A program made the position numbers and the translations under genes. A stretch of 15,894 bases of DNA from Candidatus Latescibacterota bacterium. GTDB taxonomy: Bacteria > Latescibacterota > UBA2968. The notes under the pieces are model-generated. The model searched no databases and had not been told where the DNA came from. It saw only the letters and a program-made list of their open reading frames with translations. Below are positions 5,002 through 8,868 of this stretch, piece by piece. The stretch is taken from positions 28,361-44,254 of the forward strand of contig JAYODI010000046.1 of the NCBI GenBank assembly GCA_038279365.1. The letters are read 5' to 3'. Numbering within the stretch: the first letter of the stretch is position 1; every line of letters begins with the position of its first letter.

Positions 5002-5994
5002 TTATTTGATCTTCATGTCTTGAACGGCTTGCACAACATCTTTTACAGTGGGTATGGTTGCATCTTCAAGGGGTTTGCTAAATGGAATGGGCACATCCAT
5101 TGCGCCTAAGCGCACAATGGGCGCGTCGATATAATCAAAAGCACCTTGATAGACGACCGATGCCAATTCGCCTGTGATGCCATAACCGCGATGGCCTTCG
5201 TCGATGATGACAGCGCGGGTGGTTTTGATGACCGATTGAATGAGGGTTTCTGTGTCAAGTGGGACTAAGGTGCGCGGGTCTACAACTTCGGCATGGATGC
5301 CTTGTTCGGCCAAGTGGTCGGCGGCTTGAAGGGCAACGTGTACCATGCTGGATGTGGCAATGAGGGTAACATCATCCCCTTCGCGTTTGATGTCGGCTTG
5401 GCCAAGTGGAATGGTAAAGTCTTCATCTGTGGGCACCATGCCTTTGAGGGTGTACATCATTTTGTCTTCGTAGATCACCACGGGGTTGTTGTCGCGCACG
5501 GCGCTTTTGAAGAGGCCTTTGGCATCGGCGGGTGTGGAGGGTATAACCACTTTGAGACCTGGGATATGTGCCAACCAGGCATGTAAGCTTTGTGAGTGCT
5601 GGGCGGCAGAAGATCGCCCTGCACCGAGGGTGGTACGAATGGTCAATGGCACGCTGGCCTGACCGCCCGACATGTAACAGAGCTTGGCGGCTTGGTTAAC
5701 AATTTGGTCCATGGCGAGGGTGATAAAGTCGCCAAACATCACATCCACAATGGGTCGCATGCCCGTGAGGGCCGCACCGACACCAAGCCCCACCAAACCG
5801 GCTTCGGCAATGGGGGTATCGATGATGCGGTCGGGGCCAAATTCGTCGTAGAGACCGGTGAGCACTTTGAAGACGGTGCCTGCTGGGCCCACGTCTTCGC
5901 CCATGAGAAACACATTGGGGTCACGGCGTAATTCTTCGGCGATGGCTTCTTTAACGGCTTCGCCAAAGGTCATTTCTTTTTCAGACGTAGACAT
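5002..5994 (-). CDS. acoB: TPP-dependent acetoin/pyruvate dehydrogenase E1 beta subunit
   Basis: MGEDV, DTPIAE, DQIVNQAAK, AAQHSQ and EVVDPRTLVPLD are typical E1 beta motifs. Overlaps E1 alpha by 14 nt. Substrate is not certain. Confidence 0.93.
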   Translation of the reverse strand: MSTSEKEMTFGEAVKEAIAEELRRDPNVFLMGEDVGPAGTVFKVLTGLYDEFGPDRIIDTPIAEAGLVGLGVGAALTGMRPIVDVMFGDFITLAMDQIVNQAAKLCYMSGGQASVPLTIRTTLGAGRSSAAQHSQSLHAWLAHIPGLKVVIPSTPADAKGLFKSAVRDNNPVVIYEDKMMYTLKGMVPTDEDFTIPLGQADIKREGDDVTLIATSSMVHVALQAADHLAEQGIHAEVVDPRTLVPLDTETLIQSVIKTTRAVIIDEGHRGYGITGELASVVYQGAFDYIDAPIVRLGAMDVPIPFSKPLEDATIPTVKDVVQAVQDMKIK

Positions 5995-6943
5995 GCTGGT
6001 TCACCTCCGAAACGTCGGGATAGTCGGCTTTTTTGGCGGCTTCAACGGCATTGGCAACTTCGCTTTCCACTTCGCGCACTTCGGCGTCGAGCTCGGCTTC
6101 GGAGGCCAGTTTTTCGGTTTTCATTTTTTCACGTAGGCGATTAATGGGGTCTTTGGCGAGCCACTCATCGCGTTCTTCTTGTGGGCGATACGATTCACCT
6201 GGGTCGCCTACGTGGTGACCTCGATAGCGATAGGTGTCGCATTCGATGAGGGTGGGGCCACCGCCTGATCGGGCACGTTCAACGGCTTGGGCGGTGGCTT
6301 CATAAACGGCAATGGCGTCACTGCCATCGACTTGGGCCGATGGAATGCCAAAGGGTGTGGCACGGTCGGCAATGCATTTGCCTGCGGTGACACTTTGGGT
6401 GGCGGTGAATTCGCCATAGTGATTGTTTTCGCACAGATAAATGATGGGCAATTGCCAGATGGCAGCAAAGTTCATGGTTTCGAAGAAGATGCCTTGGTTG
6501 GAAGCGCCATCGCCGAAGAAACAAACAGCGACTTGGTCGGTGCCTCGTTTTTTGGCGGAGAGGGCAGCACCCGTGGCGATGCCAAAACCACCGCCGACAA
6601 TGCCGTTTGCACCGAGGATGCCCACGGACATGTCGGCAATGTGCATGGAGCCGCCTTTGCCACGGCAATGGCCCGTGACACGACCCATCACTTCGGCCAT
6701 CATGTATTCGAGGTTGCCGCCTTTGGCAACGCAGTGGCCGTGGCCTCGGTGGGTGCTGGTGATGTAGTCGTCGTCGCGCAGGGCGGTGCAGGCACCAACG
6801 GCAACGGCTTCTTCGCCGATGTAGAGGTGGGCGAGGCCGTGCATGAGACCGCCGGTATAGACTTCGTAGATTTGTTCTTCGAAGCGGCGGATGCGGAGCA
6901 TGTTGCGGTACATTTTTAGAAGGATTTCTGGGGGTAGGGGCAT
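5981..6943 (-). CDS. acoA: TPP-dependent acetoin/pyruvate dehydrogenase E1 alpha subunit
   Basis: HLYIGEEA, STHRGHGH, GKGGSMH, TPP motif GDGA...ENN, YRYRGHH. AAGGA RBS. Confidence 0.93.
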   Translation of the reverse strand: MPLPPEILLKMYRNMLRIRRFEEQIYEVYTGGLMHGLAHLYIGEEAVAVGACTALRDDDYITSTHRGHGHCVAKGGNLEYMMAEVMGRVTGHCRGKGGSMHIADMSVGILGANGIVGGGFGIATGAALSAKKRGTDQVAVCFFGDGASNQGIFFETMNFAAIWQLPIIYLCENNHYGEFTATQSVTAGKCIADRATPFGIPSAQVDGSDAIAVYEATAQAVERARSGGGPTLIECDTYRYRGHHVGDPGESYRPQEERDEWLAKDPINRLREKMKTEKLASEAELDAEVREVESEVANAVEAAKKADYPDVSEVNQHVYV

Positions 6944-7012
6944 GGATTGGGTTCCTTTGTTTGGTGCGGGTTATGCGGTTTGATGGTCATCTTTATTGTT
7001 TTGGTTTTGTTC

Positions 7013-7494
7013 TGCCTACGGCGTCATACTTTTCTTGAACACCCAAGAAAAGTATGCAAAAGAAGGGTGCCACTGCGTGGGGCTTAAATTTTGTTTCGTT
7101 GTATTTACGAGCGTCAACCACCCTCACCAGCCCGTGTGGTTCCCGCCCATCCACGTGTTCCACACGCCCCTTCCCCTCCCACCCATCACCGCCCATCCAA
7201 CCACACAACGGCCCACCCCACCCGCGGGCGAAGTTGAAGTTTTGGTGTATTGATTTTACACCCCACCAAAAACACCACAAAAATCACAACCCCGATCACG
7301 TAAAGCGATCGTGATTTTCCGCGTGATCCCGTTCAGCTATTTGCTTTGTAAAAGCGATGAACGGTTTAGGCTATATTATATTGGTGTACCCACTGTGGGT
7401 ATTTGCGGAAAATCAGCCTTCCCGGCACCTGAGGGACGGCTTTTTTTGCTTACTTTTTTTAGCTGTTGAAAAAAAGTAAGTCGTGCCGAAGGCA
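7013..7494. mobile_element. Non-coding ~480 bp structured element with ~55 bp imperfect terminal inverted repeats (MITE-like or structured ncRNA; family not identified)
   Basis: Left end TGCCTACGGC-GTCATACTTTTCTTGAACACCCAAGAAAAGTATGCAAAAGAAG aligns with the reverse complement of the right end TGCCTTCGGC-AC-GACTTACTTTTTTTCAACAGCTAAAAAAAGTAAGCAAAAAAAG (34/43 in the core, with compensatory changes). No credible ORF inside. Splits the E2 and E1 alpha genes. Mobility is inferred. Confidence 0.6.
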
Positions 7495-7557
7495 AACCAA
7501 GATAAAATCTAAAATAAAACCTGCTTTCATGCAGTGTCTATCAAATAAAAGCTCCTC

Positions 7558-8745
7558 CTACAACCACTTCTCCAAATTCCCCACATCCTCCAAACTCTGC
7601 TTAAGCGTCTGTAAAAATTGCGCCGCAACAACCCCATCCACCAGCCGATGATCTGCCGAAAGCGTAATGTCTGCAATCTGACGCACTGCAATGGTGAGTG
7701 GATCTCCAATAGGAACCACACGAGGAATCGCCGCACCAATGGCAAGAATCGCCGCTTCGGGCGGGTTGACAATGGCGGTGAAGGTGGTGACACCATACAT
7801 GCCCAAGTTTGAAATGGTAAACGTGGCTGAAGCATCACCGTGGAGTTTACCTGCACGGGCGTCATTGACCCGTTGGCTTCGAATGTCGGCCAAATCGGCG
7901 AGGAATATTTTTTGTGCGTTGGGAATAACGGGTACAACGAGACCATCATCGGTGCCAACAGCAAGACCAATGTTGACGGTATCGTGAATGACCATCGCCT
8001 GAGTGCCGTTGAGACTGCTGTTGAGTTTGGGATGTTGTGTGAGGGCCTCGGCTGTGGCTTTGATGAAGAGGTCGGTGACCGAGAGTTTGATGTTGTCGGT
8101 TTGGGCAAGATTTTTGCGCCACGTTTCGGCATCGGTCATGTCAATTTCAATGCCCACATAAAAGTGGGGAATGGTGCTTTTGCTATAGGCCATCGTTTTA
8201 CCAATGGCTTGTCGCATTTTTGAAAGAGGACTGCTGCCTGCCTGGACAACGGGTGGCGATGCGGCTGTGCGTTCAACATCGGCTTTGACAATGCGCCCAC
8301 CTGGGCCTGTGCCGATAACGGTGGCGAGGTCGATGTCCAATTCACGTGCACGGTGACGCGCGGCAGGTGAGCGTTTGATGCGCGTTGATGGTGTGTTTGG
8401 GGGAAGTGATTGCGCAGGTTCTGAAACAGATGCTTCAACTTGTGCTTCGGTTGATGGTGTTGACGCGGATGTTTTAGAGAAGGCATCTTTGTCAAATGGT
8501 TCGTCTAATTCATCGGTGAGAATGGCAATGGGCGAAAGCACAGGAACCACGTCACCGTTTTGGGCCAAGATGTGACGCAAATAACCTTTTTCGGGTGCTT
8601 CGTATTCAAAGACGGCTTTATCGGTTTCCAGTTCGAGCAGAATGTCACCTTTTTCGACGCGGTCGCCTACTTTTTTGCGCCATTCGATAATGGTGCCTTC
8701 GTCTTGTTGGAGACCGTATTTGGGCATGTTGATGGGTTTGGTCAT
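7558..8745 (-). CDS. acoC: Dihydrolipoamide acyltransferase (E2) of a 2-oxoacid/acetoin dehydrogenase complex
   Basis: Start reassigned to MTKPINMPKYG (ATG at 8745) because the upstream extension is translated tandem repeat. One lipoyl domain (ETDKA), peripheral-subunit-binding domain (SPAARHRA...GTGPGGRI), catalytic DHRLVDG. Confidence 0.92.
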   Translation of the reverse strand: MTKPINMPKYGLQQDEGTIIEWRKKVGDRVEKGDILLELETDKAVFEYEAPEKGYLRHILAQNGDVVPVLSPIAILTDELDEPFDKDAFSKTSASTPSTEAQVEASVSEPAQSLPPNTPSTRIKRSPAARHRARELDIDLATVIGTGPGGRIVKADVERTAASPPVVQAGSSPLSKMRQAIGKTMAYSKSTIPHFYVGIEIDMTDAETWRKNLAQTDNIKLSVTDLFIKATAEALTQHPKLNSSLNGTQAMVIHDTVNIGLAVGTDDGLVVPVIPNAQKIFLADLADIRSQRVNDARAGKLHGDASATFTISNLGMYGVTTFTAIVNPPEAAILAIGAAIPRVVPIGDPLTIAVRQIADITLSADHRLVDGVVAAQFLQTLKQSLEDVGNLEKWL

Positions 8746-8772
8746 AGGGAACTCGTTAAAGAGGTAAGGGTG

Positions 8773-8868
8773 AAATGGCAAACGGCAAACGGCAAACGGC
8801 AAATGGCAAATGGCAAATGGCAAACCTGGAGGTGTCAAAGATGGATGATGTTATTTTTGCCGTTTGCC
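8773..8868. repeat. Heptamer tandem array (AAAYGGC)x7 with a facing inverted partial array
   Basis: Seven units at 8773-8821, ~30 bp spacer, then TTTTGCC GTTTGCC at 8855-8868. Confidence 0.92.

Follow-up and report, generated by a model that had tools for sequence, protein, structure and literature searches.

Introduction

Short intergenic repeats with one strand able to fold into an intrastrand triplex, the BoxC/PIT/TMECO repeats, have been described in Escherichia coli and other Proteobacteria [Holder et al. 2015 (PMC4666352), citing Hoyne et al. 2000]. As described there, they occur in tens of copies per genome without an associated transposase, carry on one strand three tracts that can form a hairpin and its third strand, often lie in close inverted pairs (for BoxC/TMECO, 5 cases in E. 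coli K-12), and are linked to variable loci. By analogy in all these respects, they are the closest printed kin of the elements considered here, which lie in a 15,894-nt stretch of DNA (the window; positions 28,361 to 44,254 of contig JAYODI010000046.1, assembly GCA_038279365.1) from a Candidatus Latescibacterota bacterium. In the window, the spacer between the E2 and E1alpha genes of a 2-oxoacid dehydrogenase operon consists of two independent members, elements A and B, of two dispersed, strand-specific structured repeat families of Latescibacterota, which share an end module with the covariation expected of a triple-helix pseudoknot.

The module and the proteobacterial repeats differ in several ways. 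TMECO, as presented in the same work, is a G/C-rich, 37-nt triplex of the purine motif (class II) and is unable to form in RNA, whereas the module is a putative A/U-rich pyrimidine-motif triplex with the class IV order of tracts (Hoogsteen strand, pyrimidine strand, purine strand). The TMECO presented there has no pseudoknot helix and no structured body, while the module is locked by a covarying pseudoknot and ends a body of 130 to 300 nt; TMECO is also given without strand bias (13 plus, 10 minus), whereas 92% of module copies are oriented by GC skew. The BoxC/PIT/TMECO pattern, CCCTCNCCC N3-6 GGGNGAGGG N3 GGGNGAGGG, was found neither at 7013–7080 nor at 7416–7493.

REP/BIME, ERIC, BOX, RUP, and Correia repeats, structured sequences that are transcribed together with their neighbors, resemble A and B in being many-copy intergenic sequences of modular or mosaic build, in being present or absent between relatives, and in including hairpins, which can stabilize upstream message segments; we know of none with a triple-helix pseudoknot. 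REP elements accompany RAYT (Y1) transposases, and Correia-type elements have terminal inverted repeats (TIRs) and target duplications. In contrast, A and B have no linked Y1 gene, and neither TIRs nor target duplications were seen in this genome. They also depart from miniature inverted-repeat transposable elements (MITEs) with passenger sequences, since the same core occurs in at least three unrelated TIR frames and without TIRs in this genome.

At the RNA level, the triple-helix stability elements listed in a review come from viruses, vertebrates, and transposons of plants and fungi, with no bacterial entry, and bacterial RNA triplexes appear there only as short ligand pockets of riboswitch pseudoknots [Brown 2020 (PMC7583470)]. 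Like ENE/MALAT1 as portrayed there, the module would have a U·A-U run interrupted by C+·G-C, a genomically encoded A-rich strand, and a location at the end of a noncoding or transposable-element RNA; unlike ENE/MALAT1, in which U-rich internal loops clamp a 3′ A-tract, it is a predicted H-type pseudoknot. Its layout (stem 1, an A-U-rich stem 2 whose deep groove takes up a pyrimidine loop 1, and a short loop 3) would be, in outline, that of telomerase RNA and of the SAM-II/SAM-V and preQ1-II/III riboswitches. The riboswitch triplexes are described with about two U·A-U triples and a ligand (PMC7583470), whereas the module would have 6 to 7 canonical triples and a stem 2 of 12 to 13 bp. The module further differs from riboswitches in having no ligand pocket, dozens of copies, and a ribosome-binding site that is not involved. 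In yeast telomerase RNA, a pyrimidine-motif triplex with C+·G-C was reportedly found by Cash and colleagues in 2013.

Literature searches on intergenic repeats or RNA of Latescibacteria turned up nothing relevant, and those on triple-helix or ENE RNA stability elements turned up no bacterial one among the papers listed. As far as the searches reach, the module fold, its host range, and its replication-linked orientation are not in print; class IV motifs of other bacteria may appear in the supplementary tables of Holder et al. 2015 or in the ITxF database. The Latescibacterota elements are interspersed structured or intrastrand-triplex repeats, with a predicted triplex-pseudoknot fold that is uncatalogued for bacterial repeats.

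Results

Two repeat families share one end module

A preliminary description of the locus, made from the window sequence, presented 7013–7494 as one ~480-bp noncoding unit with inverted termini. The features it named are all found: inverted arms (7022–7065 and 7440–7483; 44 nt, 80% complementary), perfect hairpins (7025–7037/7044–7056, 13 bp; 7449–7460/7469–7480, 12 bp), mini-hairpins GCCTACGGC at 7014–7022 and GCCGAAGGC at 7485–7493, each with an outward A-rich tail, and the pseudoknot; a long-range pair, 7312–7322/7405–7415, is also present. The region is noncoding, as had been stated: none of the three open reading frames (ORFs) of 85 to 95 amino acids in the E2-E1alpha gap reaches the Pfam cut-off.

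The single unit itself was not borne out. A search of the genome's own assembly (G000; 6.03 Mb, 98.5% complete) returned 52 matches, and a separate BLAST search returned 87 high-scoring segment pairs; the sequence is multicopy. BLAST depth was 21 to 24 over 7014–7223 and 24 to 51 over 7294–7493 but only 3 to 7 over 7254–7283. Because the depth collapses between the two parts, they represent two repeat families and not one unit. As counted with profile searches (nhmmer for A and B), this genome holds 20 long copies of A (at least 180 of 231 model positions), 44 long copies of B (at least 150 of 201), and 66 near-full copies of the shared end module; 17 of the A copies and 41 of the B copies are solo. 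The look-alike inverted termini are one common ~70-nt end module, which in plus-strand reading forms the left end of A and the right end of B.

A and B are neighbors at just three loci of this genome (the window, on C8, as well as C113 and C49), at five or more loci in G002, and at one in G001, the latter two genomes belonging to the same genus. The order is always the same, with an upstream gene followed by B in antisense, A in sense, and a downstream gene, and the A-B spacer varies from ~43 to 99 nt. Each of the three paired A copies of this genome is matched best, within G002, by a solo A copy. The inner ends of solo copies are sharp and conserved, and 5′-shortened copies retain the end module. 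Full-length A was seen only in this genus. Copies within each family are 70 to 80% alike, with helices kept through compensated changes.

Three B copies (G000 C7:27985-28271, C45:22683-22998, and C52:9088-9376) have in common a ~130-nt insertion, located between hairpin P3 and the 3′ strand of closing helix P1, that looks like an extra structured domain.

The elements are secondary insertions in a short junction

The E2 (7558–8838), E1alpha (5981–6943), and E1beta (5002–5994) genes lie on the minus strand, and the E2-E1alpha spacer is 614 bp long. At 11 related loci with adjoining E2 and E1alpha genes, this spacer is 11 to 12 nt (n = 5), 25 to 36 nt (n = 2), or 89 to 181 nt (n = 4); in a genus-g4 relative, it is ~66 nt and holds a small hairpin. 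Since the gap is only 11 to 12 nt in five relatives, the insert is secondary: two elements entered a formerly short (11- to 12-nt) intercistronic junction. E1alpha was not found in the same-genus genomes G001 and G002 (88 to 90% complete), which leaves no in-genus junction for comparison. By eye, RBS-like AGGAGC (after the E2 stop codon) and AAGGAAC (before E1alpha), against AAAGGAGCC in relatives, are too weak for a duplication call.

Turnover is also seen elsewhere. We examined 20 element-bearing loci of G002, the same-genus sister genome with ~82% nucleotide identity in genes. At three of them, the matching site in this genome is empty (19, 24, and 32 nt versus 325, 281, and 530 nt), one being an A+B pair (L073) that is missing here as a whole; two more are nearly empty here, and at least four are occupied in both genomes. 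The exact element borders cannot be fixed from these filled and empty sites, as the intergenic DNA of the two genomes is too diverged. The empty E2-E1alpha junctions proposed as a check in the preliminary description exist in relatives, and elements come and go between related genomes. The preliminary interpretation is supported to this extent and in the copy number, but not in its form of one element with inverted termini.

In two DNA runs, X1 and X3, overlapping contigs tile the insert and none joins E2 to E1alpha without it; as one of these runs may be the source sample, the contigs confirm the assembly only. DNA depth over 7380–7527 is ~350 compared to ~8 nearby in two DNA runs. Several assembly contigs (C76:1-191, C161:1-43, C110:1-60, and the ends of C163, C32, and C51) end inside A or B copies, and the repeats therefore break short-read assemblies.

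The E2-E1alpha junctions of relatives that exceed 36 nt (L041, L043, L048, and L051) contain short tandem motifs, namely, GCAGATGAAC repeats, CACGAAT heptamers, and CTCAGGA heptamers. The junction seems to draw different small repeats in different lineages.

The fold is strand specific and conserved through compensated changes

We define the module-sense strand as the one that reads small hairpin, pyrimidine run, AT-rich hairpin, and mini-hairpin; for B, this is the plus strand, and for A, the minus strand. In this direction, the module consists of a small hairpin (P4), an H-type pseudoknot, a 6- to 7-nt pyrimidine run (L1), a mini-hairpin with a GNA loop (P6), and an A-rich tail. The pseudoknot is formed by the 5 to 7 nt just 5′ of the pyrimidine run and the loop of the AT-rich hairpin (P5). 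Each outward-read strand of the insert closes with the same pseudoknot, mini-hairpin, and A-rich tail, as the preliminary description had it, and both ends match the module covariance model (E ~1e-18 to 1e-19). Beyond 72 modules, the first 10 nt are 54% A, and G remains at 11 to 17%.

Structure was quantified on an alignment of 55 modules from at least seven genomes with an explicit structure. Paired cells amount to 94.8% (84.6% in shuffles), two-sided changes occur at 14 of 22 pairs, none of 500 shuffles matched the module structure, and slid controls reached 58% at most. The proposal that structure, more than sequence, is conserved agrees with these counts. The pseudoknot helix is 89% paired with two-sided changes at 4 of 7 pairs, and P5 has 96.8% of cells paired with two-sided changes at 10 of 12 pairs. 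In P6, the three stem pairs are invariant in 55 of 55 modules, and the loops are GAA, GTA, GCA, or GGA.

At least five contiguous pseudoknot pairs are present in 51 of 53 parsed modules of this genome. The helix takes many forms: ACGGCA/TGCTGT, ACGGCT/AGCTGT, ACGGCC/GGCTGT, and GCGAC/GTCGT as well as CACCC/GGGTG, CAGCC/GGCTG, CGGC/GCCG, CGAC/GTCG, AGAGAC/GTCTCT, GAGAGAC/GTCTCTC, and CCCCC/GGGGG. It contains 102 G-T pairs compared to 4 A-C pairs, whereas the AT-rich hairpin is neutral (7 versus 9). Therefore, the pseudoknot can be formed only by the module-sense strand.

The bodies are structured as well. The long-range helix of A occurs in three compensated variants (GTGTGGTT/AACCACAC, GTGCAGTT/AACTGCAC, and GTGCCGTT/AACGGCAC), and so does its inner hairpin (GCATAT/ATATGC, CGTGT/ACACG, and CGCGT/ACGCG). 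P1 of B has the compensated variants CCAC/GTGG and CTGC/GCGA within this genome; in other genera, its sequence is wholly changed with pairing kept (GCACAGCGC/GCGCTGTGC, GGGCCGCGG/CCGCGGCCC, and CGGCCGTGGCG/CGCCACGGCCG). The fold z-score of the P1 region is −4.45, and the P4 loop of B reads GGC(A/G)NNUGA in four genera.

Compensated changes are also seen at a fixed locus. The orthologous B modules at C113 and in G002 are ~90% identical amid adjacent intergenic DNA that cannot be aligned; the P5 foot has changed from ATTAC/GTAAT to CTTAC/GTAAG and the pseudoknot from ACGGCT/AGCTGT to ACGGCA/TGCTGC. In the A module beside this B copy, L1, both P5 arms, and both pseudoknot strands have changed jointly relative to G002. 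The fold is thus kept at a fixed locus and not only in an active master lineage.

A 25- to 30-nt mini-hairpin with the core AGTAATTTGAGC is inserted, in either orientation, at three sites of the module (L1, the P5 loop, and the P5-P6 junction). It occurs in G000 copies on C26, C34, C36, C45, C103, C111, C113, C136, C159, C175, and C191, and the window copy is without it. With one mismatch allowed, ~12 of 29 matches to the pattern lie inside modules; matches to the exact core are nearly all inside.

The pyrimidine run covaries with the AT-rich hairpin as a third strand would

L1 mirrors the pyrimidine arm of P5 and hence runs parallel to its purine arm. The main L1/purine-arm classes are TTTTTTT/AAAAAAA, TTCTTTT/AAGAAAA, and TTTCTT/AAAGAA. 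To count them, 93 unique modules were pooled from seven genomes, of which 85 were parsed. Where the run is all T, the tract is A-only with 1 to 4 exceptions among 55 modules, and an internal C in L1 is accompanied by G at the mirrored place of the purine arm in 27 of 30: TTCTTTT or TTTCTTTT with AAGAAAA (n = 16), TTTCTTT or TTTTCTTT with AAAGAAA or a related tract (n = 9), and TTTCTT with AAAGAAG (n = 2). When the parallel register was compared to the antiparallel one, it won in 14 modules, tied in 14, and lost in 2, both losses being parsing artifacts or insertion-bearing copies. Such mirror covariation is what U·A-U and C+·G-C triples require, and Watson-Crick pairing cannot account for it.

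The tracts follow the order L1, P5 5′ arm, and P5 3′ arm in all 85 parsed modules, which is that of class IV intrastrand triplexes, and the two covarying helices are in the H-type order of pseudoknots with a major-groove triplex. In the predicted topology, the pseudoknot helix serves as stem 1, L1 as loop 1, and the AT-rich hairpin as stem 2, so that L1 could form U·A-U and C+·G-C triples in the major groove of P5. Stem 2 has a “foot” of 5 to 6 bp, roughly the distance over which a single linker nucleotide can cross the deep groove.

Module orientation follows replication

GC skew in this genome is very strong and bimodal (~±0.2 to 0.28). Since the G-rich strand carries 57.7% of ORFs and 33 of 47 tRNA genes, we took it as the leading strand. 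Of 64 long copies, 59 (19 of the 20 of A and 40 of the 44 of B) have the module-sense sequence on whichever strand is locally C-rich, and three of the five exceptions are members of A+B pairs, where one partner must be “wrong.” The same bias is seen in G002 (24 versus 6). In G022 and G006 (genus g5), local skew is too weak at 3 to 4 kb, and orientation was assigned via dnaA, assuming an origin at dnaA and a terminus opposite; among the matches listed, lagging-strand modules number 18 of 23 in G022 and 16 of 29 in G006. The G006 copies are near-identical, recent, and MITE-borne. As the bias is weak among them, loss of wrongly oriented copies over time fits better than oriented insertion.

Relative to genes, as called with a crude ORF caller, the families behave differently. 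In 19 of 20 A copies, the gene that follows the module points the same way as the element, although the strand concerned has just 42% of genes. A begins 0 to 31 nt past the upstream stop codon in 7 of 19 copies, and its module ends 9 to 98 nt before the next called ORF start in 13 of 20; A therefore fills short intercistronic spacers. B copies are antisense in 19 cases, sense in 9, and between divergent or convergent genes in 12, which follows the gene-strand bias of the genome. In 9 of the 19 copies that are antisense between two genes, the module end lies 56 to 72 nt from the neighboring ORF.

Within the window, plus-strand GC skew is +0.1 to +0.4 along almost the whole length, regardless of gene direction.

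The module occurs in several families of the phylum, and MITEs carry the B-type core in genus g5

Searched with the covariance model, 63 of 151 sampled Latescibacterota genomes contain the module, many with at least 34 scored matches each. By family, it is present in 27 of 29 genomes of f1, 19 of 19 of f2, 9 of 13 of f10, and 0 of 64 of f3. B-type cores without A occur in other genera (g5 and g8, of families f1 and f2); they share CCAUCA, a sequence-divergent but paired P1, the GGC(A/G)NNUGA P4 loop, the pseudoknot, and matching L1/P5 classes.

In genus g5, the core is found within TIR-bounded MITE units of 400 to 500 bp. One in G022 is a ~500-bp MITE (L101:3000-3498) with 18-nt TIRs, whose left part is a transposase remnant of an 825-bp IS5-family element; the full element lacks the core. 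In G006, the same core lies in two other TIR frames (29 and 34 nt). The conserved part of these MITEs is the passenger core, not the transposon ends. Apart from the common module, found at one end only, A and B carry no TIRs in this genome.

The IS5-family element itself (G022 L112:1958-2782; 825 bp, 18-nt TIRs) contains an A8-G6 slippery run that is likely a programmed frameshift, and the MITE family derived from it gives 113 tblastn matches in G022. In family f2, some B-type copies (L132, L136, and L137 of G026) contain an additional ~33-nt hairpin, rich in G+C, after P4 and before the pseudoknot strand. Since some G026 copies have this hairpin and no GNA mini-hairpin, the module is itself modular.

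Searches for known families, mobile partners, and signals

Rfam 15 gave no matches at E values up to 10 on 6700–7800 and none at E values up to 1 on the whole window and four loci from other genera; the inability to name a family, stated at the outset, persists at this level. No target-site duplication was detectable among 18 full A copies, where the longest common flank word averages 6.3 nt compared to 6.0 nt in mismatched controls; as copies are 20 to 30% diverged, old duplications could be erased. This and the lack of a transposase agree with what had been read from the window. No reverse transcriptase (PF00078) was found in G000, G002, G005, or G006, and G022 has one match. TnpB (PF07282) has no matches in the module-rich genomes G000, G002, and G036, and six TnpB loci of G022 and G006 contain no significant module (best E value, 0.015). 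The Y1 transposase domain (PF01797) gave two matches in G000 and none in G002 and G022; five Y1 loci contain no module, and the Y1 genes of this genome have none within ~1.5 kb. The 124 proteins flanking 69 element copies include sulfatases (11), GFO/IDH/MocA proteins (4), an unannotated cluster (4), and enolase-type proteins (3); flanking-protein clusters are catabolic only, with no mobile-element genes among the 124.

Three sigma-70–like hexamer matches were found against 0.9 expected, and they are not conserved among other copies. The P5 loop has TTGAAA/TTGACA, which could belong to a promoter reading outward from the module, but this idea was set aside because no consistent −10 element accompanies it. 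A scan of 6850–7650 for intrinsic terminators returned no sites, although P4 of B with its U7 resembles one by eye; P4 of A has only 4 bp, and the U run covaries with P5 as a third strand. Reading P4 as a bidirectional terminator was likewise abandoned, because it fails in genus g5.

Discussion

Taken as a whole, we consider it somewhat probable that A and B are structured RNA modules with a protective triplex end that are oriented by replication and dispersed by MITEs; the function alone is less sure. In RNA, the module would be a compact nuclease- or exonuclease-resistant end. The triplex end may protect the RNA upstream of it, that is, the element body and, for A, the upstream cistron, and, in polycistronic messages, the module could act as a processing boundary that precedes an unstructured A/C-rich leader. 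As single-stranded DNA (ssDNA) on the lagging-strand template, the folding strand would fold and be selected against, which we propose as the reason why 92% of copies have it on the lagging (C-rich) strand. Dispersal would occur by hitchhiking on transposase-driven MITEs, with the core outlasting the decay of the MITE flanks. More specifically, though with distinctly less confidence, the elements may be mobile noncoding RNAs of several Latescibacterota families with a long pyrimidine-motif triple-helix pseudoknot as a 3′ cap, a bacterial counterpart of ENE/MALAT1; the fold would be so stable that its DNA form is tolerated only on the leading-strand template, which would orient the elements with replication across the chromosome.

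Several observations weigh against this interpretation or limit it. The triplex is deduced from covariation among perhaps 3 to 4 sequence classes, which represent lineages and not independent events, and the same mirror symmetry allows a purine-motif DNA triplex on the opposite strand. In three copies, a hairpin is inserted within the pyrimidine run. Antisense B copies outnumber sense copies between co-directional genes, and B is therefore not simply a cis element of messages. RNA-library contigs touch 7385–7483 (from another B copy, continuing past the mini-hairpin) and short bits of an A copy; being contigs only, with DNA carry-over possible, they are weak evidence for an RNA role, and the lack of coverage over the remainder of the elements in the RNA runs is neutral as to expression, strand, and ends. 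Against conservation in place, the positional orthologues of two other A copies in G002 are not their closest relatives (ranks 17 of 17 and 8 of 17), which may reflect repeated insertion, conversion, or fast compensated change. In genus g5, ~100 nt of repeat extends beyond the module, so the module is not always terminal.

The most serious alternative, to which we assign a minor but substantial share of the probability, is that the structure acts as ssDNA: an intrastrand triplex or hairpin signal, either the end of a nonautonomous element moved as ssDNA at replication forks (by an HUH/Y1-type or unknown enzyme) or a PIT/BoxC-like DNA repeat that acts mainly on replication and genome stability. 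Replication-linked orientation (59 of 64 copies by GC skew and 24 versus 6 in the sister genome) and the GNA mini-hairpin suit an ssDNA role as well as an RNA role, GNA mini-hairpins being unusually stable DNA hairpin motifs. The lack of TIRs and of a detectable target duplication in this genome, the retention of the module in 5′-shortened copies, and the lack of reverse transcriptase in four of the five genomes searched, this one included, also fit. The account of Holder et al. 2015 (PMC4666352) adds that G-T pairs and pyrimidine-motif triplexes form in DNA too, and the five close inverted pairs of BoxC/TMECO in E. coli K-12 resemble the A+B arrangement. Yet bodies of 130 to 300 nt with long-range covarying helices and conserved loops exceed the needs of a transposon end, and the co-orientation of A with the next gene in 19 of 20 copies, despite a 42% share of genes, points to an effect through transcription. 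The two Y1 genes here have no nearby module, and two module-rich genomes (one 88% complete) have no Y1 match. The weak bias of recent G006 copies (16 of 29 listed) suggests selection after insertion. The folding strand is on the lagging strand, opposite to the rule for IS200/IS605, whose active strand is reportedly on the lagging-strand template according to Ton-Hoang and colleagues (2010).

It is improbable that the insert is one ~480-bp nonautonomous transposon with the modules as TIRs and the A-only and B-only copies as half-elements. The A+B geometry does recur (three loci here, at least five in G002, and one in G001), the G002 pair L073 is wholly missing at the matching site, and the 44-nt arms are 80% complementary; against this stand the solo state of 17 of 20 A and 41 of 44 B copies with their sharp inner ends, pair spacers of ~43 to 99 nt, the best match of paired A copies to solo G002 copies, B-type cores without A in four other genera, and the failure to find a target duplication or transposase. 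We hold it equally doubtful that A is a riboswitch- or attenuator-like leader of the downstream gene with the triplex pseudoknot as a sensing or expression platform, as in SAM-II, preQ1-II, and guanidine-III. A is in sense with an ORF start 9 to 98 nt past the module in 13 of 20 copies, its neighbors are often catabolic (sulfatases in 11 of 124 flanking proteins, also GFO/IDH/MocA and enolase-type proteins), and the bacterial RNA triplexes described by Brown 2020 (PMC7583470) are ligand-binding H-type pseudoknots. However, the same module ends B, which in most copies is antisense or flanked by convergent genes; close relatives differ in whether an orthologous site holds an element; 7 of 19 A copies start 0 to 31 nt past the upstream stop codon, which leaves no room for a promoter; the ribosome-binding site is outside the pseudoknot; and Rfam gives no matches. 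That the spacer is an ordinary terminator or promoter region conserved with the operon is hardly credible. The terminator-like look of P4 and U7 in B and the three sigma-70–like matches (0.9 expected) speak for it, but the spacer is missing from 11 of 11 related E2-E1alpha junctions and its sequence belongs to families of 20 to 66 copies, so that copy number and the short junctions of relatives refute it; moreover, the terminator scan was empty, the hexamers are unconserved, and the A hairpin has only 4 bp.

Should the fold of the favored triplex-capped RNA module prove real, the module would be the first interspersed repeat in bacteria for which covariation supports a pyrimidine-motif triple helix of 6 to 7 triples; RNA triplex “caps” have so far come from RNAs of eukaryotes and viruses, besides the short ligand pockets of riboswitches. 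The module is a compact natural candidate for an RNA stabilizer or operon insulator. Its near-complete orientation with replication would give a direct genomic readout of the cost of a folding strand and links the RNA- and DNA-structure views of repeats such as BoxC/PIT, whose function has been open since the 1990s. The g5 units indicate that conservation in MITEs can lie in a structured passenger and not in the transposon ends. Genome annotation is affected too, as such elements split operons, break assemblies, and create spurious ORFs.

Features of the locus

Table 1. Parts of elements A and B and their surroundings, in window positions, with the strand on which each is read and the basis of the assignment or further detail.
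Feature	Position	Strand	Basis or detail
Leader between the end of element A and the E1alpha start codon	6944..7012	-	G-poor, A/C-rich; ATG at 6943-6941 (sequence)
Likely ribosome-binding site	within 6944..7012	-	AAAGGAAC
Element A, ~230 nt	7013..7243	- (folding strand; same sense as E2/E1alpha)	nhmmer, alignments
A mini-hairpin P6	7014..7022	-	GCC-GUA-GGC, GNA triloop
A AT-rich hairpin P5, 13 bp	7025..7056	-	Loop holds the 3′ strand of the pseudoknot
A pseudoknot strand in the P5 loop	7040..7044	-	Pairs with 7065-7069 (CACCC/GGGTG)
A pyrimidine run L1, UUCUUUU	7058..7064	-	Proposed Hoogsteen third strand for AAGAAAA of P5; mirror-repeat covariation
A pseudoknot 5′ strand, CACCC	7065..7069	-	Covariation
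A small hairpin P4, CCAC-GCA-GUGG	7070..7080	-	Middle pair covaries: CAC/GTG, CGC/GCG, CCC/GGG
A body long-range helix (7134-7141 with 7199-7206) around hairpin 7154-7158/7162-7166	7134..7206	-	Compensated variants
Spacer between the 5′ ends of A and B	7244..7294	.	A/C-rich on the plus strand; BLAST depth 3-7
Element B, ~200 nt	7295..7493	+ (folding strand; antisense to operon)	nhmmer, alignment
B closing helix P1, 11 nt, 100% (7312-7322 with 7405-7415)	7312..7415	+	Compensated variants
B variable hairpin, inside P1	7329-7364	+	
B hairpin P3, inside P1	7386-7392/7396-7402	+	
B hairpin P4, conserved loop GGCACCUGA	7416..7440	+	Upper-stem variants UCCC/GGGA, CCCC/GGGG, UUCC/GGAA
B pseudoknot, ACGGCU 7436-7441 with AGCUGU 7461-7466, one G-U pair	7436..7466	+	Covariation
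B pyrimidine run L1, U6-7	7442..7447	+	Proposed third strand for A7 of P5
B AT-rich hairpin P5, 12 bp	7449..7480	+	Inverted-repeat search, alignment counts
B mini-hairpin P6, GCC-GAA-GGC	7485..7493	+	Alignment
A-rich tail of B up to the E2 stop codon	7494..7557	+	Sequence

Two further observations concern the E2 side of the insert. Right after the E2 stop codon, on the minus strand, 7515–7545 contains a small hairpin (CUGC-AUGAAA-GCAG) followed by a U-rich run, possibly a weak terminator or a site of processing before element B. In the 426-amino-acid E2 ORF, the alignment of relatives begins only at residues 16 to 32 (8745–8838, minus strand), and the TTG start at 8838 is therefore probably too far upstream.

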